NCBI GenBank assembly: GCA_964388085.1
Contig: CAYLZW010000002.1
Location: forward strand, 225 to 64,224
Length of the DNA: 64,000 nucleotides
Direction of reading: 5' to 3'
Source of the DNA: an uncultured Myxococcales bacterium
Lineage (GTDB): Bacteria > Myxococcota > UBA727 > CAYLZW01
The notes beneath the pieces were generated by a model. It did no database searches, was not told the DNA's origin, and saw only the letters and a program-made list of their open reading frames with translations. Made by a program: the position numbers and the translations under genes. Shown one piece after another: positions 9,520 through 48,567 of the stretch; the stretch's first letter is position 1; every line of letters starts with the position of its first letter.

Positions 9520-12500
9520 ATGCGCGAAGCTCTCGATGGCCTGGTGCTGCGGACGCTGTCGTGGGCCGACGGGCTCTGGCCGGCGCCGCCGAGCGCGTCG
9601 CCATCCGCGCCCGCGGGCAGCGTCGACGCGCTGGCGCCCGGCTCCGTGGTCGCCAATCGCTACCGGCTCGAGGACGTGCTCGGGGAAGGCGGCTTCGGTC
9701 GCGTGTGGCGGGCGCGTGATCTGAGCGCAGAGCGCGACGTGGCCTTCAAAGAGATGCGGAGACCGGCGACGGCGGACGACGAGGGCGCGAGCACGGCGCA
9801 GCTCGAGCAGGAGTTCTACTCGCTCTCGAAGCTGCAGCACCCGAACATCGTGCGCGTGTTCGACTACGGCGAGCTCGACGACGGCACCCGCTATCTCGTC
9901 ATGGAGCTCGTCCCCGGCTACGACGTCTACGAGAAGGTGAAGCGCGGCCCGCTCGAGCGCGACAGCGTCTTTCGCGTGCTCATCGATATGTGCCAGGCGC
10001 TTCACCTCATGCACTCGCGCCTGTTCGTGCACTGCGACATCAAGGCCGAGAACATCCGCGTCACGAGCAAGGGCGCGAAGCTGATGGACTTCGGCCTCTT
10101 GCACCAGCTCGGCACGCCCGCCACAGAGGCGCGCGGCACGCCGCAGTACATGGCGCCGGAGATGATTCAAGGCGGCGTCATCGACGGACGCACCGACCTC
10201 TACTCGCTCGGCGCGCTCGCCTACGAGATGTTCTCCGGCCGGCTCCCCTTCGAGGGAGCGACGCCGCTCGAGGTCATGCAGCAGCACCTCGGCGAACGGC
10301 CGAGGGAGCCGAGCTATTACCTCGACCTCCCCGACGGCGTCGACGAGCTCGTGCTGCGCCTGCTCGCGAAAGACCCCAAGGAGCGGTTCAAGAGCGCCGC
10401 CGATGTGCTCGCGTCTTTGACGTCGCTCTCCGGCATCGACGCCGAAGACCTGCCGGTCACCCATCGCACGAGCTACCTCTACAGCGCCAACCTCGTCGGG
10501 CGAGAGCGGGAGAGCGCGGAGCTGCGTTCGCTGCGCGAGCTGCTGCAGGAGGGCAAGGGCGGCGCACTCTTTTTGAGCGGCCGAGGCGGTGAAGGCAAAA
10601 CGCGCCTGCTCGAGGAGCTGCGGCTCGGCATCAAGCTCGATCGCATCCCGTGGGCCTCGTCGGTGTGTCGGCGCGAAGGGCTCGCGCCCCTGCAGCCGAT
10701 GGTCGAGGTGCTCGAGCTCCTCGCCGCGCGGACCTCGGACCCGATCCTCGCCCCCCATGGCGCCGTGCTCTCGCACATCCTGCCGTCGCTGCGCGGGCGC
10801 GGCTTCAGCCCTCCCCCGTTCGCTAGCCCGACGACGGCGAAGTTCCGCGTCAACGAGGCCGCCGCGGCGTGGCTGAAGGACCTCGCCGCCGAGCGGCCGC
10901 TCTGCCTCGCGCTCGAGGATCTGCACGCCGCCGACGGGGCGACGCTGGATCTGTTCAACCACCTGATCCGAGAGCTGAAGGGCAGCGCGGTCTTGCTGCT
11001 CGGCACGTTCCGTAGCACCGAGGTGGACCGGACGTCGCCGCTGTACGCGACCGTGAGTGAAGGCGCCGCGCGCTGCCTGGAGCTCTCGCCGCTGTCGCGC
11101 GCCGCCGTCGACGAGCTGCTCGCGAGCACGTTGACCGAGCACGCCCTCTCGAACGACTTCATCGACGTGATGTTCGAGCGCACGGGTGGCAACGCGTTCT
11201 TCGTCATCGAGATGCTGCGCTATCTCGTCGAGGCGGGCCACCTGGCCGAGCACGAGGGCCGCTTCGCGATGACCGCGGAGGCGGTGGAGCTACCAGGCGA
11301 GATCGGCGCCATCGTCGAGAAGCGCCTGCTCGCGCTACCGGACGAGCTGGCCGACTTCTGCCGCGCCGTGGCGCCCATCGGTCGCGCGCTGTCGGCGAAG
11401 CTGGTCGAGGAGCTCACCGCGAGCTCTCGGGAGTCCGTGCAGGAGCGCTTCGAGCAGCTGGTGGAGCGACAGTTCCTATCGCGGGAGCGCGGGCAGTTCT
11501 CGTTCGCGAACGACGCGGTGCGAGAGGGCATCTACCGCAACACCGCCGACGACGAGCGCCAGGCGCGGCACCTGCGCATCGGCGAGCTGCTCGAGAAGGG
11601 CGTCGGCGTCCCCGACGAGCAGCCGGCGCCGCCGAACCAGCTCGCCTACCACTACAAGCGCAGCCGAACCCCCGAGCGCGCCGTCGACTTCTTCTTGGCC
11701 GCCGCGCAGCTCGCCATCAAGAAGCAGCTCCTGCTCGAAGGCAGCCAGATGCTGAGCGAAGGCGCGGAGCTGCTCGAGCAGTCCTCACGCAAGGACAAGA
11801 CGCCCTTGTTGGCGACCTTCTACGACGCGATGGCCGCTGCCGCCGTCGGGACCCATCCACCGTCGACGGTGAAGGCCGTCGCTCGGCTCGACGAGCTCTG
11901 GCAGAACAAGGTGGATCCCGATCGCGTGCTCGCGCTCATCAAGAAGCGCAAGGAGCGCGCGGAGAAGGCGCCGGCGTTCTTGAAGAAGTACTTCTCGCCG
12001 CCGCCGGGGCCGCCCCCGCCGTTCGATCCGAAGACCGACGATCCGGTGCGCATCTTCGACCGGCAGCTGCAGCTCCACGGCATGCAGGCGATGGCCTTCG
12101 CCGTCCTCGGTCAGCCGGACCAGGCCATGGCCGTCGCCGACCGACTGGTCGCGCGCCTCCCCGACCCCCGCTCGCCGCTGAAGGCGGTGGCGGCGGTGCC
12201 GCGCATCCTCGCGCTCTTTCACATGGGGCGCTTCGGTGAGCTGCGCGAGGTGGCGAGAGGCGCGATGGCCGCCTTCGAGGCCGCCGGTGATCGTCTGCCG
12301 CCGCCGCTGCGCATCTTCTGGTTCTTGTCGACGTACGTGTACTCGCTGTCCGAGGCCGTCGACGGGCGCGTGCTCGACGAGGACGTCGCGAACAAGGCGA
12401 AGGACATCGCGGAGCGCTTCGACCTGCCGCAAGAGCGCGCCTTCGCCATGCTGCCCCGGCTCGTGCGCGCGGCCGTCTCCGGCATCCCGTCCGAGCTGAA

Positions 12501-13188
12501 CCGATGGTTCGCCGAGATGGACGACATCATCCGTCGCCTCGGCTACCCCCACGCGCTGCACAGCCGCTTCCGTCTGTGGCTGCCCATCTATTACCTCGAG
12601 CGCGGTGAGCTCGAGCTCTCCCGCGCCACCGCCGCGCGCCTCGAAGGAATGGGCAAGGCCACCCGAGACGTATGGCTGCTCACCTACGCCGGCATCTATC
12701 ACGCGCTCGACGCCATGGAAGCTGGCGAGCACGAGCGCGCCGACCAGCTGCTCATCGGCGCCATCGAGGGAGCGCGCGCGCGCAAGCTCGGCCGCCTCGC
12801 CACGGCGCTGTGTGCGCGCGGGCAGCTCTTGTCCTCGGTGCAGCGCGACGCGGAGGCGCGCCCGCTGCTCGAAGAGGCGCTGCAGCGCGCGACCTCGAGC
12901 GAGCTCCGCTGCAGCTACGACGAGAGCGTCGCCAGCCGCCTGCTCGGCGAGGTCAGCGACGGCGAGCCCGGGGACAACCTCCTCGCCCGGGCGCTCGAGG
13001 TCGCCGCCGACATGCAGAGCCCCGTACAGCAGGGCTTCGCGTGGTACGCCATCGCACGTCGACGGCAGCGGCTCGGAAACGGTGACGTGCAGCAAGCGGT
13101 CGACGAGGCGATCGGCCAGTTCTCTTCCATCGACAACACGCGCTGGTGCGAGCGCGCGAAGAAGCTGGCGCTCGTCCGCGCCGAATAG
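9520..13188 (+). CDS. Multidomain Ser/Thr kinase - AAA+/STAND NTPase - TPR protein (1222 aa)
   Basis: N-terminal Hanks kinase (GEGGFGRVW, AFKEM, HCDIKAENI, DFGLLH, GTPQYMAPE). Then a P-loop GRGGEGKTRLLEEL (AAA/NB-ARC-like). Long helical/TPR-like C-terminus. Confidence 0.85.
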   Translation: MREALDGLVLRTLSWADGLWPAPPSASPSAPAGSVDALAPGSVVANRYRLEDVLGEGGFGRVWRARDLSAERDVAFKEMRRPATADDEGASTAQLEQEFYSLSKLQHPNIVRVFDYGELDDGTRYLVMELVPGYDVYEKVKRGPLERDSVFRVLIDMCQALHLMHSRLFVHCDIKAENIRVTSKGAKLMDFGLLHQLGTPATEARGTPQYMAPEMIQGGVIDGRTDLYSLGALAYEMFSGRLPFEGATPLEVMQQHLGERPREPSYYLDLPDGVDELVLRLLAKDPKERFKSAADVLASLTSLSGIDAEDLPVTHRTSYLYSANLVGRERESAELRSLRELLQEGKGGALFLSGRGGEGKTRLLEELRLGIKLDRIPWASSVCRREGLAPLQPMVEVLELLAARTSDPILAPHGAVLSHILPSLRGRGFSPPPFASPTTAKFRVNEAAAAWLKDLAAERPLCLALEDLHAADGATLDLFNHLIRELKGSAVLLLGTFRSTEVDRTSPLYATVSEGAARCLELSPLSRAAVDELLASTLTEHALSNDFIDVMFERTGGNAFFVIEMLRYLVEAGHLAEHEGRFAMTAEAVELPGEIGAIVEKRLLALPDELADFCRAVAPIGRALSAKLVEELTASSRESVQERFEQLVERQFLSRERGQFSFANDAVREGIYRNTADDERQARHLRIGELLEKGVGVPDEQPAPPNQLAYHYKRSRTPERAVDFFLAAAQLAIKKQLLLEGSQMLSEGAELLEQSSRKDKTPLLATFYDAMAAAAVGTHPPSTVKAVARLDELWQNKVDPDRVLALIKKRKERAEKAPAFLKKYFSPPPGPPPPFDPKTDDPVRIFDRQLQLHGMQAMAFAVLGQPDQAMAVADRLVARLPDPRSPLKAVAAVPRILALFHMGRFGELREVARGAMAAFEAAGDRLPPPLRIFWFLSTYVYSLSEAVDGRVLDEDVANKAKDIAERFDLPQERAFAMLPRLVRAAVSGIPSELNRWFAEMDDIIRRLGYPHALHSRFRLWLPIYYLERGELELSRATAARLEGMGKATRDVWLLTYAGIYHALDAMEAGEHERADQLLIGAIEGARARKLGRLATALCARGQLLSSVQRDAEARPLLEEALQRATSSELRCSYDESVASRLLGEVSDGEPGDNLLARALEVAADMQSPVQQGFAWYAIARRRQRLGNGDVQQAVDEAIGQFSSIDNTRWCERAKKLALVRAE

Positions 13189-13202: not shown

Positions 13203-13709
13203 ATGCCGGAGACCGGGAACTTGCGCTGGGAGGTCGAGAACGACGCGGACGGCGCCGCGCGGCTGGTGCTGAGCGGAGACATCGACGACCACGTGCGTAT
13301 GGGCGCGGTCGAGCCGCCGGCCGCGAGCAAGCTCGTCGTCGACCTCTCGGGCGTGCGGCGCATCAGCTCCTTCGGGGTAAAGGAGTGGGTGCCCTTCGTG
13401 CGCGGGCTGAAGGCGCGCGGCGGCTCCATCGTCTTCGAGCGCTGCCCGAGCGTCATGGTGCGGCAGTTCAACATGGTGCCGTCGACGCGCGCCGGCGCCG
13501 TCATCAAGAGCGTTTTTTTGCCCTACTTCTGCGACGACTGTGACGACGAGCGGAACGACTTCCTGCTCGAGGTGAGCGGCGACGAGCCGCCCTTCGAGCC
13601 GCCCGCGCGCGCCTGCCCCGAGTGCGGCGCCGAGCTCGAGTTCGACGACGTACCCGAGTCCTACTTCGGCTTCTGGACGCAGCGAGACGAGCTCATCGAC
13701 GAGGACTGA
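13203..13709 (+). CDS. Standalone STAS (anti-sigma-factor-antagonist-like) domain + C4 zinc-ribbon protein
   Basis: VVDLSGVRRISSFGVKEWV...IVFERCPSVMVRQFNMV aligns to SpoIIAA DLSFMDSSGLGVI...MVVCAISPAVKRLFDMS, with the conserved phospho-acceptor position (SS). Followed by FCDDCDDE...CPECGAEL. Overlaps the stop of the giant kinase. Paralog of 42763..43254 and of the kinase A/B/C N-termini. Confidence 0.75.
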   Translation: MPETGNLRWEVENDADGAARLVLSGDIDDHVRMGAVEPPAASKLVVDLSGVRRISSFGVKEWVPFVRGLKARGGSIVFERCPSVMVRQFNMVPSTRAGAVIKSVFLPYFCDDCDDERNDFLLEVSGDEPPFEPPARACPECGAELEFDDVPESYFGFWTQRDELIDED

Positions 13710-33421: not shown

Positions 33422-35890
33422 ATGCACCCTCCCCTGTTACCGACCCCGCCCCAGGGCGCGCACGAGAGCGCGCGAGGCATCTCTCGCGTGCTCTCGGGGC
33501 ACCGTCTCGCGCGCATCGGACTTCGGCGCCTCGGGCAGGCGCGCGTGGTGTCCGCGCTCTCCGAGCTGCGCGTCGTGGCGTCGTCGCACGAGGCTGCGTT
33601 CGCGGCGACGGTCGCGGCCGAGGTCGCGCGGCGGAGCGGAGACCTGCGTGGCGCTGCCGCGCTGCACAAAGACGCGGCGGAGCAGTGGCGAGAGGCCGGC
33701 AACGCGTCCCTCTCCGCCGTCGCGCTCGCGCTCAGCGTCGAGGACGCCGTGCTCTCCGGCGAGCTGCAGAGCGCGCAGGCGAACCTGCGCGACGTCGAGG
33801 CGGCCGGCGGATCGGTGCACGTCGCGAACGCGTTCTTGAGCTTCGCGCGCGGCGACACCGCGGCCGCGCGCGCGTCCTTCAAGGTGTTGATGGACGCGGC
33901 GCCCGGCGACGCGTGGGCGGCCTGCTGGGTCGACGCCTACGGAGCCGAGGTCCTCGTCGAGATGGGCGCGCTCGTCGGGGCCCAACAGGCGCTCGACAGG
34001 CTCGGCGGCAGGCTCTCCCCCGAGCACCGCTTCTCCGAGGCGTTCCTGCGACACGCCGTGCTGCGCGCCCGCCATGAGTCCTTGCGCCGCCTGACGCTCG
34101 GCGGTGATGAGGACGACGAGAAGGCCAAGCTGCACGCGCTCGTCGTACGCGCGCAGCGCTACGCCCAGGGGTTCCCGCTCTATCGCGCGTGGGCGCATCA
34201 GGTCGCGGGGGAAGAGGCGCTGCTCAACGCGGGCGACCCCGCCGCCCTCTTCGACAAGGCCATCGCGGACGCCGAGGAGGCCGGCAGCCCCTACCTGCAC
34301 GGGCGCCTATTGGCCCGTCAGGTCGAGTCGATGCGCGCCGTCCAGGAGCGGCGCTCCAACCCGCGTGCCTTGCGCGCGCGCAGCCTGCTGCTCGACTCCG
34401 GCGCGACCGGCTTCCTCGGCGCGCTGACGACGTCGAAGGGCGGCGCTCCCGAACGGATGCCCTCGCGCATGTCGATCGCGCTGCGCCTCGAGACGTCGCT
34501 CGATCAGATGAACCTGAGCGACGAGGCGGGGCTCGACGCCGTCATCGAGGTCAGCCGCCACCTCCAGAGCGTGCGCAGCCTCGACGAGCTGCTCGAGCGC
34601 ATCGTCGACTCGGTCTCGCGCGTGCTGCGCGCCGAGCGAGCCGCCCTGCTCAAGCACGACGGAAGCGAGTTCGAGTGCCTGGTCGCGCGCGGCATCGCCG
34701 CCGCCGACGTTCGCGAGGGCAACAAGGGTGTCTCGTTCGGCGTCGTGCGCGAGGCGATGCGCTCGGGAGAGCCGGTGCTGTCGGACAACGCGCTGGCCGA
34801 CGCGCGCTTCATGGATCGGGCGTCGGTGATGGCGACCGACATCCGCTCGGTGCTGTGCTCGCCCATCCGCACCAAGGACCACACCTTCGGCTTCCTCTAT
34901 CTCGACCGCCGCCTCACCGGTGTGCCGTTCTCGCCCGAGCACCTCGACCTCCTGGCCGCGTTCTCCACGCAGGTCGCGGTCGCCTGGGAGAACGCCGTGT
35001 CGTTCGAAGAGATCGCGCGCCTCAATGAGGGCCTCGAGCGGAAGGTCAGCGATCGCACCGTCGAGCTGCGCAAGAAGAACGACGAGCTGCAGACCACCCT
35101 CGACGAGCTCACCAACACGCGCCTCAAGCTGGCCGAGGCCGAGCGCGACGCGCTCGAGAAGGAGATGCAGCTCGCGCGCGACATTCAGCGTTCGATCCTG
35201 CCCCCCGAGGACACGCAGCGGCTGAGCGGCCTGTCGGTGTGCGGCCAGGTGATCCCCGCGAGCTATTGTGGCGGCGACTTCTGGGGGTACGCCGCGCTTC
35301 CCGACGGGCGCACGCTCGTCATCATCGCCGACGTCACCGGGCACGGAATGGCGTCGAGCTTGATCACCGCGGTGGCGCGCTCCTGCCTCGACACCCTGCG
35401 AGAGCAGGAGGCCATCCGCTCCGCCGCCGACGTGCTGCGCACCATGAACCAGGTCATCTTCGCGTCCGCGCACGGGAAGCTCTGCGCCACCGCGTTCGCC
35501 GGCATCTTCGATCCGGCGGCGCGGCAGCTCTCCTTCGGCAACGCCGGACACAACTTCCCGTATCTGCTCCGCGAGGGCGCCGACGCCGCGCCGCTCGTAG
35601 CAGCCGGCACCCGCCTCGGGGAGGCCGCGAACACCGACTTCGAGACGCACGTGCGAGAGATCCTGCCGGGCGATCGGCTGGTGCTGTTCACCGACGGCAT
35701 CATCGAGTGGCCGAACGCCAAGGGGAAGGACTACGGAGACCGGCGCTTCCGCAAGTCCGCGCAGGCGCGACGGGGCGAGGCGCCGGACGAATGCATCCGC
35801 GGCCTCATCGACGACGCCACGGCGTACACGGACGGCATCGAGCGTGACGACGATCTGACGCTGGTGATCGTCGACGTCGCCACCGAGTGA
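33422..35890 (+). CDS. GAF domain + PP2C-family (SpoIIE/RsbU-like) Ser/Thr phosphatase with N-terminal TPR-like region
   Basis: PP2C motifs GGDFWGY, IADVTGHGMASSL, FGNAGHNFP, LFTDGIIE, DDLTLVIVD. Preceded by a GAF-like segment (LDELLERIVDSVSRVLRAERAALL...FLYLDR) and a coiled coil. Confidence 0.85.
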   Translation: MHPPLLPTPPQGAHESARGISRVLSGHRLARIGLRRLGQARVVSALSELRVVASSHEAAFAATVAAEVARRSGDLRGAAALHKDAAEQWREAGNASLSAVALALSVEDAVLSGELQSAQANLRDVEAAGGSVHVANAFLSFARGDTAAARASFKVLMDAAPGDAWAACWVDAYGAEVLVEMGALVGAQQALDRLGGRLSPEHRFSEAFLRHAVLRARHESLRRLTLGGDEDDEKAKLHALVVRAQRYAQGFPLYRAWAHQVAGEEALLNAGDPAALFDKAIADAEEAGSPYLHGRLLARQVESMRAVQERRSNPRALRARSLLLDSGATGFLGALTTSKGGAPERMPSRMSIALRLETSLDQMNLSDEAGLDAVIEVSRHLQSVRSLDELLERIVDSVSRVLRAERAALLKHDGSEFECLVARGIAAADVREGNKGVSFGVVREAMRSGEPVLSDNALADARFMDRASVMATDIRSVLCSPIRTKDHTFGFLYLDRRLTGVPFSPEHLDLLAAFSTQVAVAWENAVSFEEIARLNEGLERKVSDRTVELRKKNDELQTTLDELTNTRLKLAEAERDALEKEMQLARDIQRSILPPEDTQRLSGLSVCGQVIPASYCGGDFWGYAALPDGRTLVIIADVTGHGMASSLITAVARSCLDTLREQEAIRSAADVLRTMNQVIFASAHGKLCATAFAGIFDPAARQLSFGNAGHNFPYLLREGADAAPLVAAGTRLGEAANTDFETHVREILPGDRLVLFTDGIIEWPNAKGKDYGDRRFRKSAQARRGEAPDECIRGLIDDATAYTDGIERDDDLTLVIVDVATE

Positions 35891-38332: not shown

Positions 38333-39316
38333 TCAGCGTGCCAGGAAGACGTTGAACGACTTTGGGCGCTCCGAGAAGTCGCGATAGCGGCCGCGGATGT
38401 CGATGACGCCGATGAGCTCGGTCCGCCGGCCGGGGTGCACGTTGATGATGAACTGGGAGAGCGTCTCGAAGAGATAGTAGAGCCCGAGCCCCGCCCCGCC
38501 CTCCTTGTCGTCCACCTGATCGCTCCCCTTGCGGAAGCACTTGCCGAGATAGGCGACGACCGTCTCCGTGGCGAGCGATCCGAAGGGGTCGCGCACCGAG
38601 ATGCCGAGCTTGCGGCCGTCGGTGCAGAAGACGGCCTCCACCGACTTCCCGGCGGCGAGCTCTACCTCTTCGGTGCGGCTCAGGTGCGCGAAGCAACGCT
38701 CGCCGGCGTCGTTCGTGGGCGCGTTGTAGATGGCGTTGGTGATGAGCTCATCGGCCGCGCTCTGAAACAGCTCCACGAAGCGCGCTTGGGCACCCTTGCG
38801 CGTGGCGAAGGCGGCGGCGGCCCGGATGGCGGCGAAGCGATCGGAGGCGCGCGAGAGCGTGAGTCGCTCGTGCTCCGCGCCCCAGGGGAAGTACTTCTCG
38901 AGGCCGAAGATGTCGTCGCGCAGGATCTTCTGCACCGTGACCAGCAGCTCGTCGCCGTCGAGGTCACCGCTGCGCGCCAATAGGTGCGTAAGCGTGTGGC
39001 GCGCGAACAGCCCGGCCAGCTCGGTGCGCTGCGCTCCGCCCATGAAGAGCACGAAGCGCCCCGCGTCCTGCTGCCGCGCGAAGCGCTCGAAGATCGCGTC
39101 CCGCGCGCCTTCTTCGATCGCTTCATAGTCGACGACGACGAGATCGGCGTCGTCTGCCGCGACCTCGTCGGGCGTCGCTACGATCCGTACGTCGTCGACG
39201 ACGGCGCGGGCGATGCGTCCCAGGTCGCGCAGCGACGTCTTGTCCCCGACGAGAAACACGCGCTGCGCGGCACCCGGCCGCGCCTGTGGCGACGGAGCGT
39301 CGTCGGGCCGGTTCAT
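38333..39316 (-). CDS. Receiver-like domain + GHKL (RsbW/SpoIIAB-like) ATPase, paralog 2
   Basis: N-box ADELITNAIYNAP, G1 DPFGSL, G2 GGAGLGL. N-terminal CheY-like segment (ADLVVVDYEAI). Start MNRPDD overlaps the upstream stop (ATGA). Paralog of 45395..46360. Confidence 0.7.
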   Translation of the reverse strand: MNRPDDAPSPQARPGAAQRVFLVGDKTSLRDLGRIARAVVDDVRIVATPDEVAADDADLVVVDYEAIEEGARDAIFERFARQQDAGRFVLFMGGAQRTELAGLFARHTLTHLLARSGDLDGDELLVTVQKILRDDIFGLEKYFPWGAEHERLTLSRASDRFAAIRAAAAFATRKGAQARFVELFQSAADELITNAIYNAPTNDAGERCFAHLSRTEEVELAAGKSVEAVFCTDGRKLGISVRDPFGSLATETVVAYLGKCFRKGSDQVDDKEGGAGLGLYYLFETLSQFIINVHPGRRTELIGVIDIRGRYRDFSERPKSFNVFLAR

Positions 39317-40401
39317 GCGGGAGTCAGATCCGCGGCGGAGCGGTCCGGCGCGGCGCTGGGCGCGCGCTCTTCGCAGACGCGTACGCGCCAACCGATGCGA
39401 CCATCCACGCGCCCTTCGTCGAGCGACTCCCGTTCCACGATCTGCACCTCGACGGCGCCCATCACCCGGGGCGAGAGGATGTCGAGCGACAAGATGTCAC
39501 CCACGTCATACGGCACGAAGAACGCCCTCCGCGGCACGAGCAAGGCGCCCGCCTGCAGGTCGCCTCGCAGCAGGAAGAAGTCGACGCGCGTGCCGTGGCG
39601 CGCGCGCACGCGGATCTGGCCAGGCGAAGCCTCCGAGCGCTTCGTCGTCGCTGGCCTCACGCGCATCACGTTCGTGTCGCGCACGAAGCGGGTGATGGCC
39701 GCCCGTGCCGGGGCCGACACCGCGACGAACTCCACGCCCATGCGTATGCGCTCGGCGCCGGTCGGGCCCGTGAAGCGCTCGCGCCAACGAACGCGCGCGT
39801 TCAGCTCCGCCGCCTGCTCGAAGACATTGATCTCGAAGGTCAGCCCCTCGAGCTCTTCGTGCTCGAGGCCGCACTCGATCATCGCGCCGCAGGCGCTGAT
39901 GTTCACCAGCTCGCCCTCGAACTGAAGGCCGGACTGGCCGCTGATCTCGTCGTTGACGGCGGCGCGCTCGGCGAGCCGGTGCAGCGTCACGTTCGGCAGC
40001 ATCGCCAGGCGCCGCATGAGCTGTCCGAACGCTCCCTCCGGCCAGACGAACACCTGGCGCAGGCCGAGCTTCGCGGCGCGTCGCGTCGAGCCCGCGCTGC
40101 GCGTCGACGAGCACGCGATGAACACGGCGGAGTCCGGTGTTTCGGCGCAGCGTTCGGCCACGTGCGCCCAGATCTTCTCCGGCGCGTTGCTGCCGATGGC
40201 GAGGTCGACGAGCACGAACGCTTTGCCCTTCGCCCCGTCGATCGCCTCGCACACAGCCCGAACGGAGCGGGCGCGCACCACGTCGATGCCCGCGCGAGCG
40301 AGCAGCTCGCGCTTGCCGTCATCGAGCGAGAGGCGATGCAGCACCACGCGCCCGTGGCCGCCCCGCTCCCCCTCTTCACGTTCGCCCGCGGTCGACGTCA
40401 T
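39313..40401 (-). CDS. Response-regulator receiver + PilZ-domain protein
   Basis: Receiver-like AFVLVDLAIG...KLGLRQVFVWP. PilZ motifs RLAERAAVNDE (RxxxR) and NISACGAM (D/NxSxGG-like). The second C-terminal beta-barrel may be a degenerate PilZ. Confidence 0.65.
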   Translation of the reverse strand: MTSTAGEREEGERGGHGRVVLHRLSLDDGKRELLARAGIDVVRARSVRAVCEAIDGAKGKAFVLVDLAIGSNAPEKIWAHVAERCAETPDSAVFIACSSTRSAGSTRRAAKLGLRQVFVWPEGAFGQLMRRLAMLPNVTLHRLAERAAVNDEISGQSGLQFEGELVNISACGAMIECGLEHEELEGLTFEINVFEQAAELNARVRWRERFTGPTGAERIRMGVEFVAVSAPARAAITRFVRDTNVMRVRPATTKRSEASPGQIRVRARHGTRVDFFLLRGDLQAGALLVPRRAFFVPYDVGDILSLDILSPRVMGAVEVQIVERESLDEGRVDGRIGWRVRVCEERAPSAAPDRSAADLTPA

Positions 40402-40513: not shown

Positions 40514-42760
40514 TCACCCGCGGGGCGGCTTCTTTCGCTTCGGCGCCTTTGCCGGTGCGGCCGCCTCAGCGGTCTGTCGGAGCGCGCCGTGAAGGGTGAT
40601 GCCGCCGTCGATGGAGATGGTCGAGTGCGTGGGCGTCAGAAGCGGCAGGTCCATGGCGCCCGACTCGTGGGAGCGCGCGGCGAGCGCCTCGAGCCACTGC
40701 GAGAGATGAGCGGCCGTGGCCACGCGAGCGATCGCGACCAGCGTCGCCTCGAGCTCAAGCTGCAGCGCTCTCGCCGACGAGAAGCGCGCGTCCGGCTCGC
40801 GGCTCACGCAGCGCGCGATGATGTCGTCCAGCGCGCCCGGCACATCGGGGCGCACGGAACGGACCGAGGGCACCGGCTCGTTCAGCACCGCGAACATCGA
40901 CATGTACTCGCTGTCGCGGCGGAACAGCGGCGTGCCGGTCAGCATCTCCCACAGCACCACGCCGACGGCCCAGAGGTCCGTGCGCCGATCGACGTCACCG
41001 CGCGCGGGGTCGATCTGCTCCGGCGCCATATAGATGACCTTGCCCTTCAGGTTCCCCGCGCGCGTCTCGAGCAGCGAGTGCGCCACCTTGGAGACGCCGA
41101 AGTCCGTGAGCTTCACGGCGCCGTTCAGGGACAACAGGACATTGTGCGGCGAGACGTCGCGGTGGACCAGCTCCAGCACCCTGCCGTCGTCATCGGCGCA
41201 GCTGTGCGCCGCGTGCAGGCCGGCACAGATATCGGACGCGATGCGACACGCCAGCTCGACGGGCAGCGCCACGTCCAGGTGCTGCGCGGCGCTGATGACC
41301 GAGCGCAGGTCCCAGCCGTCGACGAGCTCCATGGCGATGAAGTAGCCGTCGTCGTCTTGGCCGAGATCGAAGATCTGCACGACGTTCGGGTGCGTGATGG
41401 CCGCCGCCACACGCGCCTCTTGCAGGAAGAGCTGAGAGAAGTGTTCGTTGGCTGCCAGCTCCGGCAGGATTCGCTTGAGCGCGACCTGCTTGACGAAGCC
41501 CTCGGGCCCCCGCTGCTTGGCGACGGAGACCTCCGCCATACCGCCGCGCCCGAGCGGTCGGACGGCCTCGTAGCGGGTGAGCGCGGAGCCGCTCAGCGTC
41601 CCCGTCGAGGGCGGCGCGCTCGCCGGCACACGGACGGCGCCGACGTCGGGCAGCGCTTCGCCGGGATGCGCTGCCAGGTAGGACATCACCGCGCTCGGCA
41701 CGCGCTCGGCGAACAGGTCGAGGACCTCCGTGGCCCCAGCGGCGCTGTCGACCGGCCATGGGGCGCCGCACGCGGGACAATTCGCGCGTGGCTCGCCGGC
41801 GTGCACAGGAGAACGATCCGTGGACGACCTCGCGAGCAACGCCTTCATCGCGATCGCGTCTAGCTCCAGGGTGACGAGCTTCGCACAGCTCGCGCACGAC
41901 GACGACAGCAGCACGGTGGCGACGCGTCCCGCGAGCGCCGCCTGCAGCGGAGCGTTGCCCGTGTCCAGCAACGAGAGCGGGACCCTCGCCCAATACACGT
42001 CCGCGTCCGCGCTCTCTGCGACGTCGAGCAGCCTGCTGCTGCCAGCGTCGTCGACGCTGGTGACGCCCGCCAGCACCACGAGCACGATCCCCTCGAACCC
42101 GTCCGCGAGGCGCCGGAGTCGCGCCTTCGACGACACGCAGCCCTGAAGCCACAGGGAGGTGACGAGGCCGGTCACCTCCTTTTGGGCACGAAAGGGAGCG
42201 GGCCGAGGCGACGTCGCCGCGCCGAGCGCGACGTCGACCAGCGCGTTCAGCGCCGACGGCAACGGCGGTGAGCCCTGCGTGCGCGCGAACGACAGGTAGG
42301 CCTCGGGCACGTCGTCGAGCTCGGCCTCGGCGCCACAGCGATGACAGCGCGCCACGGGGAGCGGCGCGCTCGGCTGCAGCACGCTCTTGCCCGGCGGCGT
42401 CCGCAGGTCCACGAGGAGGTCGGTCTCGACGTCGCACGCCTCACACACGTAGGGCAGATAGAAGCTGACGAGCGCGGCGCCTCCGGCGAAGCCGCCCACC
42501 ATATTGAGCTGCGCCACGATCGCGGGGCGCGCGTGGATGATGCAGGCGTGCTCTACGTCGAGCGCGCCCATGGCGGAGACCCATTCGCGCACGCCAAACG
42601 ACGTGATGCGCCTCACCCCGTCGAGGTCGAAGACGACGAGGCCCGCCAGATCGCGCAGGTCCGCTCGCTGGAAGCTGGCGTCGAGCTCCCCCGCGATGTG
42701 GACGAGCGTGCCTCCCGGCAGCTTGCGCTTGTCGATGCGCAGCGTCTGGCTCGGCGCCAT
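40514..42760 (-). CDS. 2x(STAS + zinc ribbon) - Hanks Ser/Thr kinase, paralog C
   Basis: Start MAPSQTLRIDK. STAS-1 VVFDLDGVRRITSFGVREWV + VCEACD...CHRCGAE. STAS-2 with SCASCAK...CPACGAP. Kinase motifs GRGGMAEV, VALKRI, HRDVSPHN, DFGVSK, YMAPEQ. Confidence 0.85.
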   Translation of the reverse strand: MAPSQTLRIDKRKLPGGTLVHIAGELDASFQRADLRDLAGLVVFDLDGVRRITSFGVREWVSAMGALDVEHACIIHARPAIVAQLNMVGGFAGGAALVSFYLPYVCEACDVETDLLVDLRTPPGKSVLQPSAPLPVARCHRCGAEAELDDVPEAYLSFARTQGSPPLPSALNALVDVALGAATSPRPAPFRAQKEVTGLVTSLWLQGCVSSKARLRRLADGFEGIVLVVLAGVTSVDDAGSSRLLDVAESADADVYWARVPLSLLDTGNAPLQAALAGRVATVLLSSSCASCAKLVTLELDAIAMKALLARSSTDRSPVHAGEPRANCPACGAPWPVDSAAGATEVLDLFAERVPSAVMSYLAAHPGEALPDVGAVRVPASAPPSTGTLSGSALTRYEAVRPLGRGGMAEVSVAKQRGPEGFVKQVALKRILPELAANEHFSQLFLQEARVAAAITHPNVVQIFDLGQDDDGYFIAMELVDGWDLRSVISAAQHLDVALPVELACRIASDICAGLHAAHSCADDDGRVLELVHRDVSPHNVLLSLNGAVKLTDFGVSKVAHSLLETRAGNLKGKVIYMAPEQIDPARGDVDRRTDLWAVGVVLWEMLTGTPLFRRDSEYMSMFAVLNEPVPSVRSVRPDVPGALDDIIARCVSREPDARFSSARALQLELEATLVAIARVATAAHLSQWLEALAARSHESGAMDLPLLTPTHSTISIDGGITLHGALRQTAEAAAPAKAPKRKKPPRG

Positions 42761-42762
42761 CG

Positions 42763-43254
42763 TCAAGTGGAGGTACGTCCCGCCGACTCGTCGACGAAGG
42801 CGAGATACGACTCCGGCGTGTCGTCGAGCTGCATCTCGCCGCCGCACTCCGGACAGGGGGCGCACTCGTCGAGCGTCGGTCGTCGCCCCGGCTGCAGCTC
42901 GAGGGGGAGCGTACGCTCGTCGTCACACGCCTCACAGAAATAGGGCACGAGGATCGACGTCACCGCGGCGTCCCCCCGCATGGTCGCGATCATGCTGAGC
43001 TGCCGGACCATGACGGGCGAGCAGCGCTCGAGCTCGACCTTGGTGGCTTTGCTCGATAGGCGCTGCAGAAAGCCGATCCACTCGCGCACGCCACAGGAGT
43101 TGATGCGTTGGACCTCGGACAGGTTCAGCACCACGCGCTCTGTCGCCGCCGCGACGACACCCGAGAAGTCGGCCTCTTCCGTGATCTCGCCCCTCATGAC
43201 GAATCGATGGGTCGCGCCGCTCTCCTCGAGGCTCCAGGTCAGACCGTCGGTCAC
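42763..43254 (-). CDS. Standalone STAS + zinc-ribbon protein (paralog of 13203..13709)
   Basis: VVLNLSEVQRINSCGVREWI...VELERCSPVMVRQLSMI; FCEACDDE...CPECGGEM. GTG start overlapping the kinase B stop (GTGA). 2 nt before the kinase C ATG. Confidence 0.75.
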   Translation of the reverse strand: MTDGLTWSLEESGATHRFVMRGEITEEADFSGVVAAATERVVLNLSEVQRINSCGVREWIGFLQRLSSKATKVELERCSPVMVRQLSMIATMRGDAAVTSILVPYFCEACDDERTLPLELQPGRRPTLDECAPCPECGGEMQLDDTPESYLAFVDESAGRTST

Positions 43255-45395
43255 GGGACCTCCTCATCCGGTATGGACATCGTCACCTCCGGCCAGGCGT
43301 CGACCTCCGTCTGGGTCCGGTCGAAACCACGCTCTTCCTCGTCGTTCGGGAGGAGCGCGCCGTGCGGGGGCGTGAAGTCCAGGCGACGGATCTCCCCCTC
43401 AGCGTATCCCTGTCTCGCCAGCCCGTGCAGCCAGTGCGCCAGGTGTGCCGAGCTGGCCGGTTGGCCGATGTCGAGGAGCACGCGCTCGAGCGCGAGGTGG
43501 AGGTGGCGCGCCGTCTCGAAGCGATCCGTCGGCAAGCGCGCCGTCGCGCGACGGATGACGTCGACCAGCGACGGGGGAACGTCCGGCCGCTTCTCCTCGA
43601 TGGGCGGGATGTCAGCTTCGAGCGCGGCCCGCATGGAGGCCAGCTCTTCGTTGCGCCACAGCGCCGGGACGCCGGTGAGACACTCGTGCAGCACCAGGCC
43701 GGCGGCGAACACATCGACGCGGCGGTCCACCGCGCCGAGGGTGCCGTCGAGCTGCTCGGGAGAGATGTAGATGACCTTGCCGCGCACCGTGCCCGGCCGG
43801 GTGCCGAGGTTCGCGCCGGCCGGCTTGGAGATGCCGAAGTCGGTCACCTTGACGCCGCCTTGCACCGAGATGAGCACGTTGTCCGGCGAGACGTCTCGGT
43901 GAATGATCTCGAGGCGTCGGCCGTCCTCGCCGCGCGCCGAATGGGCGGCGTGCAGCCCGGCGGCGACGTCGCTGACGACGCGGCAGCACAGCTCGATGGG
44001 GAACGACCGCTTGAGCCGGCGGGCGTAGCGCAGCACGCTGCGCAGGTCCCACCCGCGCACGTACTCCATGGCGATGAAGTAGTCCGCGCCCTCTTGTCCG
44101 AGGTCGTGGATCTGCACCACGTTCGGGTGGGAGATGCGAGCGGAGAGGCGCGCCTCCCGCAGGAACATCTCGGAGAGCTCCGGATCGCGCGTGAGCTCGG
44201 GCAGCACGCGTTTGACGACGACGCGCTTCTTGAACCCGCCGGGACCGAGCACCTCGGCGAGCAGGACCTCGGCCATGCCGCCTCGCCCGATGCGGCGCAC
44301 GATGCGGTAGCGCTCACCGATGCGCCCGGGTGCGCGCGCGGAAGCGGTGTCCTTCGGCTCGACGGGGGTCGGCTCGCCGCCGGGTCGATCGCGGAGATAG
44401 TCGGCGAGCTCGATCGGTGACTCGCCCGCCAGCAGGTCCTTCAACGTCGCCAGCATGTCCGCGGTCAGCCACTCGGCGGCGCGTCCACCGCCGTCGACTC
44501 GAGCGATCTCCTGCGCGAGGATGCGCGCGTCGAACTCGAGCGTCTTCCGATGTGGCGGCGTCAGCAGCGCCGAGAGCACGCGACCGCGAAACGCCCGTAC
44601 GCCCGCGGGTGGCAACGACTGCAGCAGAGCGAGCGAGACGCGCGCGAAGTACGCGTTGGTGCGCTCCGCCAGCTCTCGCAAGCGTTCGGCGCCGAGCTCG
44701 TCCATACCGGTGACACCCGCGCAGATGACGACGACGTGCCCCTCGAGCCCATCGAGCAGGCGCTTGGTGCGCAGGCGGCGATCGATGTGCCCGCCGATCC
44801 ACAGCGCGGTGACGTCACCCTCGACCTCTTTGCGCAGCTGAAAGCTCGACGAGGGCGTCGCGCCCTCGAGCAAGCCGAGCAGACGGCTGACGGCGCGCGG
44901 CGGCGACGGCTCCGGCGCCGAGGACACGAACGAGAGATACGAGGAGGCGATGTCGTCGAGCTCCGCCGGCTCTTTGCAGCGCGGACAGGGCAGCGGTCTC
45001 GGCCCCCCGCGTCGAAGGGCGAGCACTGCCTCCTTCGCGCTCATCAGCACCTGCTGCTCGTGATCGCAGTGCTCGCAGATGTACGGCAGGTACAGGCTCA
45101 GCACCTCGCCACGCCCCACGAAGCCCGCCACCATGTTGAGCTGCGCGACGATGGCAGGGCGACAGCGGATGAGCCCGAGGAAGGAGGCGTCGATCGACTC
45201 GAGCGCGGCGATCCACTCGGGCACGCCGTAGCTCGTGACGCGCGTGACGCCGTCGAGATCGAGCACCACGGCGCCCTGCAGGTGGTCGAGCTTGTCGCGC
45301 GGGAAGCCCGCGCCGATGGTGCCGCTCAACGTCACCAGCGACACGCCGGGCGCCGGCGAGCTGACGATCGCTTCGAGTGAGGCGGGCGCCGTCAT
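43251..45395 (-). CDS. 2x(STAS + zinc ribbon) - Hanks Ser/Thr kinase, paralog B
   Basis: Start MTAPASLEAIV (TGATG overlap with the upstream stop). VVLDLDGVTRVTSYGVPEWI + ICEHCDHE...CPRCKEP. Kinase motifs GRGGMAEV, VVVKRV, HRDVSPDN, DFGISK, YISPEQ. Confidence 0.85.
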   Translation of the reverse strand: MTAPASLEAIVSSPAPGVSLVTLSGTIGAGFPRDKLDHLQGAVVLDLDGVTRVTSYGVPEWIAALESIDASFLGLIRCRPAIVAQLNMVAGFVGRGEVLSLYLPYICEHCDHEQQVLMSAKEAVLALRRGGPRPLPCPRCKEPAELDDIASSYLSFVSSAPEPSPPRAVSRLLGLLEGATPSSSFQLRKEVEGDVTALWIGGHIDRRLRTKRLLDGLEGHVVVICAGVTGMDELGAERLRELAERTNAYFARVSLALLQSLPPAGVRAFRGRVLSALLTPPHRKTLEFDARILAQEIARVDGGGRAAEWLTADMLATLKDLLAGESPIELADYLRDRPGGEPTPVEPKDTASARAPGRIGERYRIVRRIGRGGMAEVLLAEVLGPGGFKKRVVVKRVLPELTRDPELSEMFLREARLSARISHPNVVQIHDLGQEGADYFIAMEYVRGWDLRSVLRYARRLKRSFPIELCCRVVSDVAAGLHAAHSARGEDGRRLEIIHRDVSPDNVLISVQGGVKVTDFGISKPAGANLGTRPGTVRGKVIYISPEQLDGTLGAVDRRVDVFAAGLVLHECLTGVPALWRNEELASMRAALEADIPPIEEKRPDVPPSLVDVIRRATARLPTDRFETARHLHLALERVLLDIGQPASSAHLAHWLHGLARQGYAEGEIRRLDFTPPHGALLPNDEEERGFDRTQTEVDAWPEVTMSIPDEEVP

Positions 45396-46360
45396 CAACC
45401 GGCCACGAAGACGTTGAAAGACTTCGGGCGCTCCGCGAAGTCGCGAAAGCGGCCGCGGATGTCGATGAGGCCGATCATCTCGGTGCGCCGTCGGGCGTCG
45501 ATGTTGACGACGAGCTGGGAGCAAGACTCGTACACCGTGAACAGGCCGAGGCCGGCGCCGCCGGAGCGATCGCTTATCTGATCGTCTCCCCGACGGAAGC
45601 AGCGGCCCAGGTAGTCGACGATCGTGTTCGCGCCGAGGGAGCCGAAGGGGTCGCTGACCGCGCAGCCAAGCGTGCGCCCGTCCGACGAGAGCACCACCTC
45701 GATGCCCTCGCCGCGCTGCAACGACACAGGCTCCCCCCGCTTCAGGTGGGAGAAGCGCTCGGCGCCGTGCTCGTCGATGGGCGCGTTGTAGATGGCGTTC
45801 GTCGTCAGCTCGTCGACCACCGTACAGAAGAGCTCCACCATGCGGCTCTGCGTGCCGAGGGCCTCCGCCAGCGCGCGCGCCTGCTCGCGGATCGCGTCGC
45901 GCCCGCCGCTGTTGTCGAGCGTGAAGCGCAGGTGCGAGGCGCCCCAGGGGAAGTACTTCTCGATGCCGAAGATCTCGTCACGCAGGATCTTCTGCACCGT
46001 GATGAGCAGCTCCTGCCCGTCGACCTCCTCGTGGCGGCCGAGCATGTTGCGCACGCCGAGCTCGCCGAACAGCACCGACAGAGCCTCCGGCCGGCGCACC
46101 GCCGAGCACAGCACGAGGCGTCCACGGTCGCGCTCTGCACAGAAGCGCTGAACGGACCGGGCCCGCTCCTGATCGTCGAGAGCGTCGTAGTTCAACAGTA
46201 CGAGGTCGAAGGCGCGCGCGGGAGCGTCCTCGACGCGCTCCACGGTGTCGACGTGAGGCACGATGGAGCGCAGCACGCGGGCCACCGAGCGCGCGTGCTG
46301 CTTGTCCGCATCTACCAGGAGCCCGGACAGCGCGCCGGGTTCCTCGGGGCTCGGCGGCAT
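45395..46360 (-). CDS. Receiver-like domain + GHKL (RsbW/SpoIIAB-like) ATPase, paralog 1
   Basis: Start MPPSPEEPG, 2 nt after the kinase A stop. VDELTTNAIYNAP (N-box), DPFGSL, GGAGLGL. The receiver-like N-terminus has Asn at the usual phospho-Asp position (LVLLNYD). Confidence 0.7.
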   Translation of the reverse strand: MPPSPEEPGALSGLLVDADKQHARSVARVLRSIVPHVDTVERVEDAPARAFDLVLLNYDALDDQERARSVQRFCAERDRGRLVLCSAVRRPEALSVLFGELGVRNMLGRHEEVDGQELLITVQKILRDEIFGIEKYFPWGASHLRFTLDNSGGRDAIREQARALAEALGTQSRMVELFCTVVDELTTNAIYNAPIDEHGAERFSHLKRGEPVSLQRGEGIEVVLSSDGRTLGCAVSDPFGSLGANTIVDYLGRCFRRGDDQISDRSGGAGLGLFTVYESCSQLVVNIDARRRTEMIGLIDIRGRFRDFAERPKSFNVFVAG

Positions 46361-46362
46361 GG

Positions 46363-48567
46363 CTACTCCAGCTCCGTGTCGTGCTTGCGGACGCGGGTGT
46401 GGAGGCTCGCCACCGCCCGGGCGCGCGCGCTGCCGTCGATGGTGTCGGTGGCGTCGAGGCCGCCGGTCTCGTGCGTGGGCGTCAGCAGCGGCGCGGACAG
46501 CTCGCCGCCCTCGAGCGCCTTCTCGACGAGACCCTCGAGCCACTGCGCGAGGTGGGCCGACGTCGCGGCGCGGCCCATCCCCATGAGGGCCGTCTCGAGG
46601 CCGAGCTGCAGATCGCGAGCGCTGCGGAAGCGCTCGTCGTGCTCGCGCCGCAGGGCCTGCTCCACGAGCTGCTCGAGCGAGCGCGGGCAATCGGCGCGCC
46701 GCTCGCGCACGCGGGGGATGGCCGCGTTCAACACGGCGTGCATGGAGCTGTACTCACTGTCGCGACGAAAGAGCGGCTCCCCGACGAGGATCTCCCAGAG
46801 CACGAGCCCGGTCGCGAACACGTCGCTGCGCGCGTCCACCGGCCCGAGCTGTCCGTTGATCTGCTCCGGCGCCATGTAGACGACCTTGCCCTTCAGTTGC
46901 CCCGAGCGCGTCTGGAAGAACGAGTTCGCCACCTTCGAGACGCCGAAGTCCGTCAGCTTCACGGCGCCCGCGTTCGAGAGGAGGATGTTGTGCGGGCTCA
47001 CGTCCCGGTGGACGATGCCGAGCGCGTTCCCCTCTTCGTCGGTGCAGGTGTGCGCGGCGTGGAGCCCCGCGCAGATGTCACTCGCGATGCGACAAGCGAG
47101 CTCGATGGGCACGCGCTGCTCGAGGCGACGAGCGGCCGTCAGCACGGTGCGCAGGTCCCAGCCCTTCACGTACTCCATGGCGATGAAGTAGGCGTCGCCT
47201 TCCTGGCCGAGCTCGAAGATCTGCACGACGTTCGGGTGGGTGATGGCGGCGGCGACGCGCGCCTCCTGCAACAACATCCCCGAGAACTGCTGGTGACGTG
47301 CGAACTCCGGCAGGATCTTCTTCAGCGCTACGCGCTTGACGAAGCCTTGTGGGCCACGCTGCGTCGCCAGGAACACCTCGGCCATGCCGCCGCGCCCGAG
47401 CAGGCGCACGCTCTCGTACTTCGAGAGCAGGGACTGGGTCTCGACCCGAGGGTTCGAGCCGCTGCTGGCCGTGCTGACCTCCGACGTCGACACGCCCGCG
47501 AGCGCGACGCCGGGGTGCGCGTCGAGGTACGCCTTGACGTCGAGCGGGATGGCGGGCGCCATCAACGCCAGCGCGCGCTGGACGCTCTCCGCGCGATCGG
47601 TGCGCAACACGGCGCTGCCGCACACCGCGCAGCCCAGCGCACCCCCGCCGACGTGCGCCTTCAACGTGCCGGCGTCGAGCTCGACGTCGATCGGTCCGCA
47701 TTTGCCGCACGACGCGCGCACGAGGACGGTGGCGACGCGCCCCTTCGCGCGGGCGAGCGCGCTCTCATCCAGCATCCCGGCCACGCGGAGCGGCAGGCGC
47801 GCGAGATAGACCTCGGCGCCGCCGATGTGCATCAGCTCGTCGAGGCGGCGCTCGCCCCCGGGCGCGATCTCGGTGATGCCCGCCAGCACGGCCACGACCA
47901 CGCCCTCGAGGCCGTCGACGAGGCGCTTGAAGCGGGACTTCTTGTCGATGGCGCCCTGCAGCCAGAAGCCGGTGACCTTGCCGTGCACCTCTTTCTGAAC
48001 GGCGAGCTGCGCCGGTGCGTGCGCGGGCGCCTTCCCGAGCGCGCGATCGACGATTCCCTCCAGCTCACGCGCGAGCTTTGGCGGACGCTGGCTCGAGACG
48101 AACGAAAAGTACGCCTCGGGCGAGTCGTCGAACTCGGCCTCCTCGCCGCAAGCCTCGCAGCGGTGCACGGGCGCTTCGCCGCGCGCCACGTGCTCGTCGT
48201 CGTGACGCAGGTCGATCAGCACCTCGCTCTCGTGATCGCAGTGCTCGCAGAGGTACGGCAGGTACATGCTGACCAGCGCGCCGTTCCCGGCGAACCCGGC
48301 CACCATGTTGAACTGCGAGACCAGCGCCGGCCGCGCGTTCACGAAGCAGTAGACGTCGGCCGCGAGGCTCCGGAGGGCGGCGACCCATTCGCGTACGCCG
48401 AAGGACGTAATGCGCCGAACCCCGTCGAGATCGACGACGACCGCGCCGGCGAGCCCGTCGACCATCGCCCGGCTGGCGAAGTCCGCGTCGATCTCGCCGG
48501 AGAGGCGCACGATGGCACCTCCCGGGACGGCGAGCTTGTCGATGCGAAGCTGTGGATCTTTCGGCAT
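46363..48567 (-). CDS. 2x(STAS + zinc ribbon) - Hanks Ser/Thr kinase, paralog A
   Basis: VVVDLDGVRRITSFGVREWV + LCEHCDHE...CEACGEE; second module with SCGKCGP...CAVCGS. Kinase motifs GRGGMAEV, VALKKI, HRDVSPHN, DFGVSK, YMAPEQ. Start taken at the ATG (MPKDPQLRIDK) rather than the TTG at 48591. Confidence 0.85.
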   Translation of the reverse strand: MPKDPQLRIDKLAVPGGAIVRLSGEIDADFASRAMVDGLAGAVVVDLDGVRRITSFGVREWVAALRSLAADVYCFVNARPALVSQFNMVAGFAGNGALVSMYLPYLCEHCDHESEVLIDLRHDDEHVARGEAPVHRCEACGEEAEFDDSPEAYFSFVSSQRPPKLARELEGIVDRALGKAPAHAPAQLAVQKEVHGKVTGFWLQGAIDKKSRFKRLVDGLEGVVVAVLAGITEIAPGGERRLDELMHIGGAEVYLARLPLRVAGMLDESALARAKGRVATVLVRASCGKCGPIDVELDAGTLKAHVGGGALGCAVCGSAVLRTDRAESVQRALALMAPAIPLDVKAYLDAHPGVALAGVSTSEVSTASSGSNPRVETQSLLSKYESVRLLGRGGMAEVFLATQRGPQGFVKRVALKKILPEFARHQQFSGMLLQEARVAAAITHPNVVQIFELGQEGDAYFIAMEYVKGWDLRTVLTAARRLEQRVPIELACRIASDICAGLHAAHTCTDEEGNALGIVHRDVSPHNILLSNAGAVKLTDFGVSKVANSFFQTRSGQLKGKVVYMAPEQINGQLGPVDARSDVFATGLVLWEILVGEPLFRRDSEYSSMHAVLNAAIPRVRERRADCPRSLEQLVEQALRREHDERFRSARDLQLGLETALMGMGRAATSAHLAQWLEGLVEKALEGGELSAPLLTPTHETGGLDATDTIDGSARARAVASLHTRVRKHDTELE

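Follow-up and report, generated by a model that had tools for sequence, protein, structure and literature searches.

A divergent STAS module with a putative four-cysteine zinc ribbon, most likely a partner-switching phospho-switch, stands alone and in tandem on Hanks-type kinases in a myxobacterial locus

Introduction

The 64-kb stretch of myxobacterial DNA analysed here (the window; G+C about 70%) carries a recurrent domain that forms two small free proteins and is found in pairs ahead of the kinase domain of three Hanks-type Ser/Thr kinases. A first, sequence-only reading described this unit as a STAS core followed by a zinc ribbon and proposed that the free copies, lying next to kinase genes, are kinase substrates or regulators. 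The locus poses two questions: what the repeat unit is, and which enzymes act on it. Partner switching and STAS domains are well known; myxobacteria possess hundreds of Hanks kinases, the inputs of most of which are not known. A local HMM locates six Hanks-type kinase domains in the 64 kb (887-1708, 9649-10413 and 55631-56464 on the plus strand; 40721-41590, 43461-44327 and 46567-47433 on the minus strand), a density typical of Polyangia-like myxobacteria.

Fold and sequence recognition of the module

The module was modelled on its first free copy, free1:

13203..13709, plus strand: free1, standalone STAS and Cys4 zinc-ribbon protein of 168 aa (ORF, tblastn, model, hhalign); putative phospho-site Ser56, cysteines C110, C113, C138 and C141, then the acidic tail EFDDVPESYF

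The AF2 model, computed from a 13-sequence alignment (mean pLDDT 89.9), displays the alpha/beta SpoIIAA-like (STAS) fold that the sequence-only reading had anticipated. Strand beta-5 continues into a hairpin (residues 103-110 and 115-123) that bears C110xxC113 at its turn; C138xxC141 follows the hairpin, between short strands, and two short helices carry the (E/D)FDDxPxxYFxF tail, while the usual C-terminal helix is absent. Helix alpha-2 starts exactly at residue 56, and hhalign places Ser56 on Ser58 of SpoIIAA, the residue that is phosphorylated in that protein; the match is weak (probability 42%), and it puts the conserved serine of the module at the canonical phospho-site position of STAS domains.

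Sequence databases barely recognize the module. Free1 scores 24.6 against Pfam STAS_2 (cut-off 29.2) and free2, the second free copy, 20.9 against Pfam STAS (cut-off 22.6); no copy in the window reaches the gathering score of PF01740 or PF13466; among 40 diverse family members, 10 match Pfam STAS at E<=0.01. No NCBIfam model covers the module, and the Pfam and NCBIfam searches return sub-threshold STAS and generic zinc-finger matches, nothing more. The best STAS match of a family profile in PDB sequences is TM1442 (E 1.5e-3); C2H2 matches in the same search are spurious and due to the 'PYxCxxC' motif. The Cys4 part gives weak Zn_ribbon_8 and LysW matches. Many members bear the COG-based IMG name 'anti-anti-sigma regulatory factor / DNA-directed RNA polymerase subunit RPC12/RpoP', a composite that amounts to independent recognition of a STAS domain plus a zinc ribbon, as the sequence-only reading had it. 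The repeat unit is therefore a divergent STAS switch domain of the anti-sigma-antagonist type, ending in a conserved four-cysteine element that presumably binds zinc.

Copies of the module in the window

Apart from free1, the copies and the proteins that bear them are as follows:

42763..43254, minus strand: free2, standalone STAS and zinc-ribbon protein of 163 aa; its GTG start overlaps the kinB stop (GTGA)
40514..42760, minus strand: kinA, two modules and a Hanks Ser/Thr kinase domain (about 40721-41590); ATG at 42760
42266..42760, minus strand: kinA canonical module, copy 1 (tblastn, profile)
41666..42202, minus strand: kinA degenerate module, copy 2; CxxC…CxxC kept, Asp for Ser, no acidic tail
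43251..45395, minus strand: kinB, two modules and a Hanks kinase domain (about 43461-44327); ATG at 45395
44901..45395, minus strand: kinB canonical module, copy 1 (tblastn, profile)
44559..44852, minus strand: kinB degenerate copy 2; STAS part alone, Cys4 ribbon lost, Glu at the Ser position
46363..48567, minus strand: kinC, two modules and a Hanks kinase domain (about 46567-47433); ATG at 48567
48073..48567, minus strand: kinC canonical module, copy 1 (tblastn, profile)
47515..48018, minus strand: kinC degenerate module, copy 2; Cys4 kept, Pro at the Ser position

Queried with free1 and free2, tblastn finds five strong copies, namely free1, free2 and the N-termini of kinA, kinB and kinC (paralogue-versus-paralogue E 1e-18 to 1e-36); a profile of these canonical copies matches all five at 1e-59 to 1e-68. 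The three kinases, about 715-750 aa long and each with a C-terminal Pkinase domain according to Pfam, have one further, degenerate copy apiece, placed after the first module and ahead of the kinase domain. To the canonical profile these second copies are weak matches (i-E 7e-6, 6e-5 and 5.5e-4), while one derived from 131 such copies in other proteins matches them strongly (1e-32 to 4e-42), and the first-copy and second-copy profiles align with each other (probability 99.9%, E 1e-31). The earlier count of eight copies in 64 kb, two of them in each kinase, is thus right, as five canonical and three degenerate copies, of which kinB copy 2 consists of the STAS part alone.

Several details had been drawn too uniformly. 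The ribbon does not always follow the STAS core, kinB copy 2 being without any Cys, and the acidic DDxPxxY tail, taken to end every copy, is confined, like Ser56 and Trp62, to the five canonical ones. Both free copies exist as open reading frames, free2 on the minus strand, and free2 departs from the consensus motif proposed for the unit (NLSEVQRINSCGVREW). A Hanks kinase gene does precede each of them directly; in the case of free1 there is no overlap, its ATG lying 14 nt past the TAG of that gene and behind a GAGG.

Family size, range and architectures

The family of zinc-ribbon STAS proteins is genuine, large and coherent. When 1.84 billion representatives were searched exhaustively with a profile, 4,506 clusters matched at E≤1e-3, 3,640 at ≤1e-10 and 777 at ≤1e-30; the weakest of these matches may be generic STAS domains. 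About half of the best 148 representatives (71, plus variants) share the module-module-Pkinase layout, and about 56 are module pairs without a kinase domain, some of them lone, others about 700-750 aa long and in part with weak PDZ matches. FIST-module-module and Pkinase-FIST-module-module proteins are also present among the best 148, as is a single chain (P0132) that combines two modules, a Hanks kinase domain and a kinase domain of the RsbW-like type described below.

A scan of GTDB species genomes with two narrow peptide patterns gave 68 loci; as the patterns are narrow, the sample is biased and its taxonomic range is a lower bound. All 68 belong to Myxococcota (Polyangiales, Kofleriaceae and others) or Bdellovibrionota (Bdellovibrio, Bacteriovoracaceae, Oligoflexia), with G+C contents of 31 to 74%, and most encode a stand-alone protein of 150-165 aa; a module protein is present in the cultured predator Peredibacter starrii.

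Two groups of larger proteins deserve description. Members P0005-P0027 (e.g. L010 5989-6789, L013, L005), of about 250-290 aa, join the module through a low-complexity Pro/Ala/Ser linker to a highly conserved basic C-terminal helix, 'SVDRLRKLQDELDVTRDRLxxMIKxRKSK', with an RsbW-like kinase gene about 0.8 kb downstream. The large proteins P0081, P0109, P0160, P0162 and P0123 combine FIST_N/FIST_C sensor domains (up to three sets) and the module pair with an apparent hydrophobic, membrane-spanning stretch followed by a C-terminal PDZ region; some have an N-terminal Pkinase domain too.

Conservation of the serine, the ribbon and the tail

Ser56, Gly58, Trp62 and Gln88 are invariant in the 68 genomic homologues, as are C110 and C113, with C138 in 66 and C141 in 62; part of the motif invariance (PYxCxxCDxE, VRQxNMV) is subject to ascertainment bias from the pattern-based scan. 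Proteins with two modules separate an intact from a decayed copy. In their first copies, Ser56 and Trp62 are found in 131/131 and Gly58 is invariant, the four Cys are each kept in 128-131/131, and Asp148 in 128/131. In the 131 second copies, Ser56 is replaced by Pro, Ala, Glu or Asp (Ser persists in 10/131), Trp62 and the acidic tail are lost, and the Cys are retained in 114-124/131. By these alignments the tail co-varies with the phospho-site and not with the ribbon, which suggests that the tail may dock the modifying enzymes and that the ribbon may be structural. Next to the serine, position 55 is occupied by Thr or Ser in 130/131 first copies fused to kinases, versus Asn in 55/68 genomic homologues, which are mostly stand-alone.

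The gene cluster of the window

On the minus strand, the module genes form a cluster in the order kinC, HATP2, kinB, free2, kinA, PilZ protein and HATP1, with TGATG, GTGA and ATGA overlaps or 2-nt gaps at the junctions and one gap of 112 nt. The further genes of interest are:

45395..46360, minus strand: HATP2, REC-like domain and RsbW/SpoIIAB-like GHKL Ser-kinase, 321 aa, between kinC and kinB; its stop overlaps the kinB start (TGATG)
39313..40401, minus strand: PilZ-domain protein of the same cluster, between kinA and HATP1
38333..39316, minus strand: HATP1, REC-like domain and RsbW/SpoIIAB-like GHKL Ser-kinase, 327 aa; its ATG overlaps the PilZ gene stop (ATGA)
33422..35890, plus strand: TPR-GAF-SpoIIE (PP2C) phosphatase, candidate switch phosphatase (SpoIIE E 2.4e-40)

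The N-box (E190, N194) and the G-boxes (D243..G246, G273-G-A-G-x-G278) of these RsbW-like proteins, hereafter HATP, are invariant in 24 homologues, and HATP is therefore probably an active kinase. Pfam HATPase_c_2 gives a below-threshold match to HATP1 (E 1e-3) and none to HATP2, and most homologues are annotated 'hypothetical'. The TPR-GAF-SpoIIE gene is convergent with the cluster and lies about 2.4 kb from HATP1, outside the cluster proper; a large GDSL-lipase-domain protein (35904-38183, minus strand) is encoded between the two, with no evident link to the module. The PilZ protein has a receiver-like N-terminal region. PilZ proteins account for 3 of the 148 neighbour genes sampled elsewhere, and GGDEF genes come after the module in several loci; together these hint at a c-di-GMP link. 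A defence function for the cluster was considered and rejected: PADLOC gave no match to the module, HATP or PilZ, and its hits on kinA are generic kinase models, via the kinase domain only.

Neighbourhoods of related loci

Neighbours within 3 kb of the 68 modules were scored with locally built HMMs. A HATP gene is present in 41/68 loci, in most cases on the strand of the module and with its end less than 100 bp upstream of it, and a PP2C gene in 40/68 (Pfam confirms it in L014, L015, L073 and L078); the usual order is PP2C, RsbW-like kinase, module. An adjacent HATP is absent from 27/68. The sequence-only reading had proposed that co-occurrence with HATPase_c_2 and with Hanks kinase genes be checked; the former is strongly positive, while a Hanks kinase occurs within 3 kb in 7/68 loci.

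In Bdellovibrionota, the module follows a HAMP-SpoIIE phosphatase and a GHKL-motif protein of about 240-315 aa, fused to each other in some loci, and precedes, with overlaps or gaps of a few nt, PAS-HisKA-HATPase-REC and REC, PAS-GGDEF or PAS-cyclase genes; in Peredibacter starrii the run reads HAMP-SpoIIE, 310-aa HATP, module, HK-REC and REC. The layout of a module-Hanks kinase, then a HATP, then a module is also found in L007, L009, L019 and L034, and L009 (PP2C, module-kinase, HATP, module, module-kinase) closely resembles the window. In a census by Pfam of 148 further neighbour genes, Response_reg, Peptidase_S41/PDZ, HisKA/HATPase_c, GGDEF and PilZ are the leading families; the 25 commonest include no sigma-70 family, single occurrences being possible. 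Near the HATP homologue of Haliangium ochraceum there is no annotated STAS or Hanks-kinase gene; as the module itself has no Pfam model, this absence says little.

Variants of these arrangements occur. Three Bdellovibrionota loci (L026, L028, L039) contain HATP-module-HATP-module or module-module arrays followed by PAS-GGDEF, which suggests branched or competing switches. The genes 3' of the stand-alone module (L014, L015, L020, L035, L042, L050 etc.) differ in output (HK-REC, cyclase, GGDEF) and share an N-terminal PAS-like segment, 'F..YD.LF.PV.V......YFN..F...F.L.PR', that could be the docking site of the switch. In the Kofleriaceae-type loci L018, L045 and L049, a stand-alone module sits in another conserved setting, with clusters c27, c56 and c14 upstream and c15 downstream and with no adjacent HATP or PP2C; some members thus lie outside any recognisable switch cluster.

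The free1 locus can be judged against its orthologues. The gene upstream is:

9520..13188, plus strand: STK-AAA_16-TPR protein; its adjacency to free1 is not conserved in orthologues

The closest free1 orthologues (P0002-P0004; 49-57% identity) lie on short contigs. The gene upstream of the orthologue is a SpoIIE phosphatase in L073 (E 3e-42) and an unrelated Pro/Thr-rich protein in L074, neither of which looks like the C-terminal end of the STK-AAA-TPR protein. These differing neighbourhoods give no support to a functional tie of free1 with the STK-AAA-TPR gene, and free1 probably lies behind a Hanks kinase by chance. Convergent to free1, a gene for a 152-aa protein without Pfam or PDB sequence match (13755-14213, minus strand) is kept beside the orthologues in L073 and L074, the two contigs examined, at 61-67% identity; its product may be a functional partner of free1 or a mere syntenic neighbour. 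Downstream of free1, at 14350-18084 on the plus strand, a 1,244-aa protein with a Met-zincin motif (DUF4953; weak M66 and astacin matches) has no evident link to the module.

Partner switch, kinase substrate or zinc sensor

Since HATP and PP2C accompany the module in 41/68 and 40/68 loci, versus 7/68 for Hanks kinases, the module most likely works as a phospho-switch in partner switching rather than mainly as a substrate of Hanks kinases. In the classical scheme, the unphosphorylated antagonist sequesters its kinase (reviewed in PMC8256260). Here, a STAS domain in which the Cys4 ribbon and an acidic-aromatic tail replace the last helix forms a distinct subfamily of the SpoIIAA/RsbV type. Dedicated GHKL serine kinases with a REC-like and an RsbW-like part (HATP1 and HATP2 in the window) would bind the unphosphorylated module and phosphorylate it on Ser56, the N-cap residue of helix alpha-2; a SpoIIE/PP2C phosphatase linked to a sensor would strip the phosphate, its HAMP, GAF or TPR parts taking the signal, and the unphosphorylated module would then sequester HATP. 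That the module is the phospho-acceptor of such a switch, acted on at Ser56 by an RsbW-like kinase and a PP2C phosphatase and gating the Hanks kinases to which it is fused, seems to us reasonably probable.

The stand-alone form of Bdellovibrionota and of many Myxococcota would be ancestral, co-transcribed with PAS-histidine kinase, GGDEF or cyclase outputs and not with sigma factors. In Myxococcota, the domain would have been duplicated into an active and a non-phosphorylatable copy, and the pair set ahead of Hanks kinases; with such a pair in front of them, the three Hanks kinases of the window would be gated by the RsbW-like kinases and PP2C, and free2 would act as a competing soluble antagonist. 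The description of copy 1 and pseudo-copy 2 as the regulatory head of a Hanks kinase is speculative. More doubtful than the phospho-acceptor role itself, and in our judgement a tentative proposal, is the wider one that an RsbW-type/PP2C switch gates Hanks kinases, FIST proteins and TM-PDZ proteins alike through an active-plus-pseudo STAS pair, the ribbon tail being a docking element for the REC-RsbW kinase family.

The modules might instead be substrates or regulators of the adjacent Hanks kinases, phosphorylated in cis or trans at the S/T-S dyad formed by positions 55 and 56; in the fused proteins, the Hanks kinase domain may phosphorylate the module in cis. Each free copy follows a Hanks kinase gene, three kinases of the window carry the module, and module-module-Pkinase fusions make up roughly half of the 148 best representatives; the Thr or Ser at position 55 of kinase-fused copies, where others have Asn, could mark an added Hanks-type site, and fusions of STAS domains to eukaryotic-like kinases have been noted in Sorangium (PMC2887360). 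This arrangement is nevertheless the exception around the module: besides the low count within 3 kb, no Hanks kinase is found at that distance in the low-GC loci labelled Bdellovibrionota, a free1 orthologue lies behind a SpoIIE phosphatase and not a kinase, and the invariant residue is a Ser at an RsbW-type site with its cognate RsbW-like kinase alongside. The proposal that proximity to kinases makes the modules kinase substrates therefore loses most of its ground, and we regard it as unlikely.

Still less probable is a module that senses its signal itself, the Cys4 element being a zinc or redox sensor whose oxidation or zinc loss unfolds the ribbon and alters partner binding. ZAS anti-sigma factors and Hsp33 are precedents for such sensors; the four Cys are nearly invariant and kept in about 90% of the degenerate second copies, and the first CxxC lies at the end of STAS strand beta-5, which makes the ribbon part of the core. 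Cys4 ribbons of a structural kind are common, however, and conservation alone does not mean sensing; the phosphatase already bears sensor domains (HAMP, GAF, TPR), and the neighbour census contains no redox partners. That the ribbon binds nucleic acid or RNA polymerase and acts directly on transcription, as the RPC12/RpoP part of the IMG name of many members could imply, is very improbable, as this label and the weak Pfam zinc-ribbon and C2H2 matches rest on generic CxxC spacing, an acidic tail follows the ribbon, and neither sigma factors nor any DNA-binding family are enriched among the neighbours.

Two sizeable families missed by current Pfam and NCBIfam models, the zinc-ribbon STAS proteins and the REC-RsbW-like kinases, come into view. 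The family offers a concrete and testable input for a large class of myxobacterial Hanks kinases and, in predatory Bdellovibrionota, would take partner switching beyond sigma factors, with histidine kinases and c-di-GMP and cyclase enzymes as outputs. If true, the gating of Hanks kinases by an RsbW/PP2C switch would physically couple two phospho-signalling worlds in the bacteria with the largest kinomes; if the ribbon is purely structural and the switch conventional, the result is a useful gain in annotation and not a new principle.

Comparison with known systems

Literature searches on STAS domains with zinc ribbon, CXXC, Bdellovibrio or Myxococcus returned no description of a zinc-ribbon STAS subfamily, and none was found of the REC-RsbW kinase family, the active-plus-pseudo tandem or the Bdellovibrionota stand-alone systems. 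The nearest precedent for the fusions is Sorangium cellulosum, where one sentence reports COG1366 (STAS) fused to eukaryotic-like kinases (Treuner-Lange 2010, PMC2887360); SpoIIE phosphatases and COG2172 kinases have expanded there in parallel (PMC2887360). Both cases involve STAS domains on Hanks-type kinases in a polyangial myxobacterium, and the Sorangium fusions may belong to the present subfamily; the zinc ribbon, the active/degenerate tandem, the REC-RsbW-like kinase family and the Bdellovibrionota stand-alone form do not figure in that paper.

As in the SpoIIAA/SpoIIAB/SpoIIE and RsbV/RsbW/RsbU systems of Bacillus, a STAS-fold antagonist with a conserved Ser at the alpha-2 N-cap is accompanied by a GHKL Ser kinase of the SpoIIAB/RsbW fold and a SpoIIE-type PP2C. 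Unlike in Bacillus, a Cys4 ribbon and an acidic tail replace the C-terminal helix, a REC-like domain forms the N-terminus of the kinase, sigma factors are missing from the commonest neighbour families, and the sequences fall below the Pfam STAS and HATPase_c_2 thresholds.

Partner switches with non-sigma output are known in HsbR-HsbA-HsbD of Pseudomonas aeruginosa (PMC5085249) and SypE-SypA of Vibrio fischeri (reviewed in PMC8256260). In comparison with these, the present loci differ in their zinc-ribbon STAS subfamily, in their downstream partners (PAS-HK-REC, PAS-GGDEF or PAS-cyclase) and, in Myxococcota, in the fusion of tandem modules to Hanks kinases, FIST sensors or TM-PDZ proteins. They share with both systems PP2C and RsbW-like activities directed at a STAS-only protein and a link to a diguanylate cyclase or two-component system; at some loci (L014), PP2C and HATP are fused in one protein, as in HsbR. 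For the non-sigma output of the zinc-ribbon STAS switch, HsbR-HsbA-HsbD is the closest analogy.
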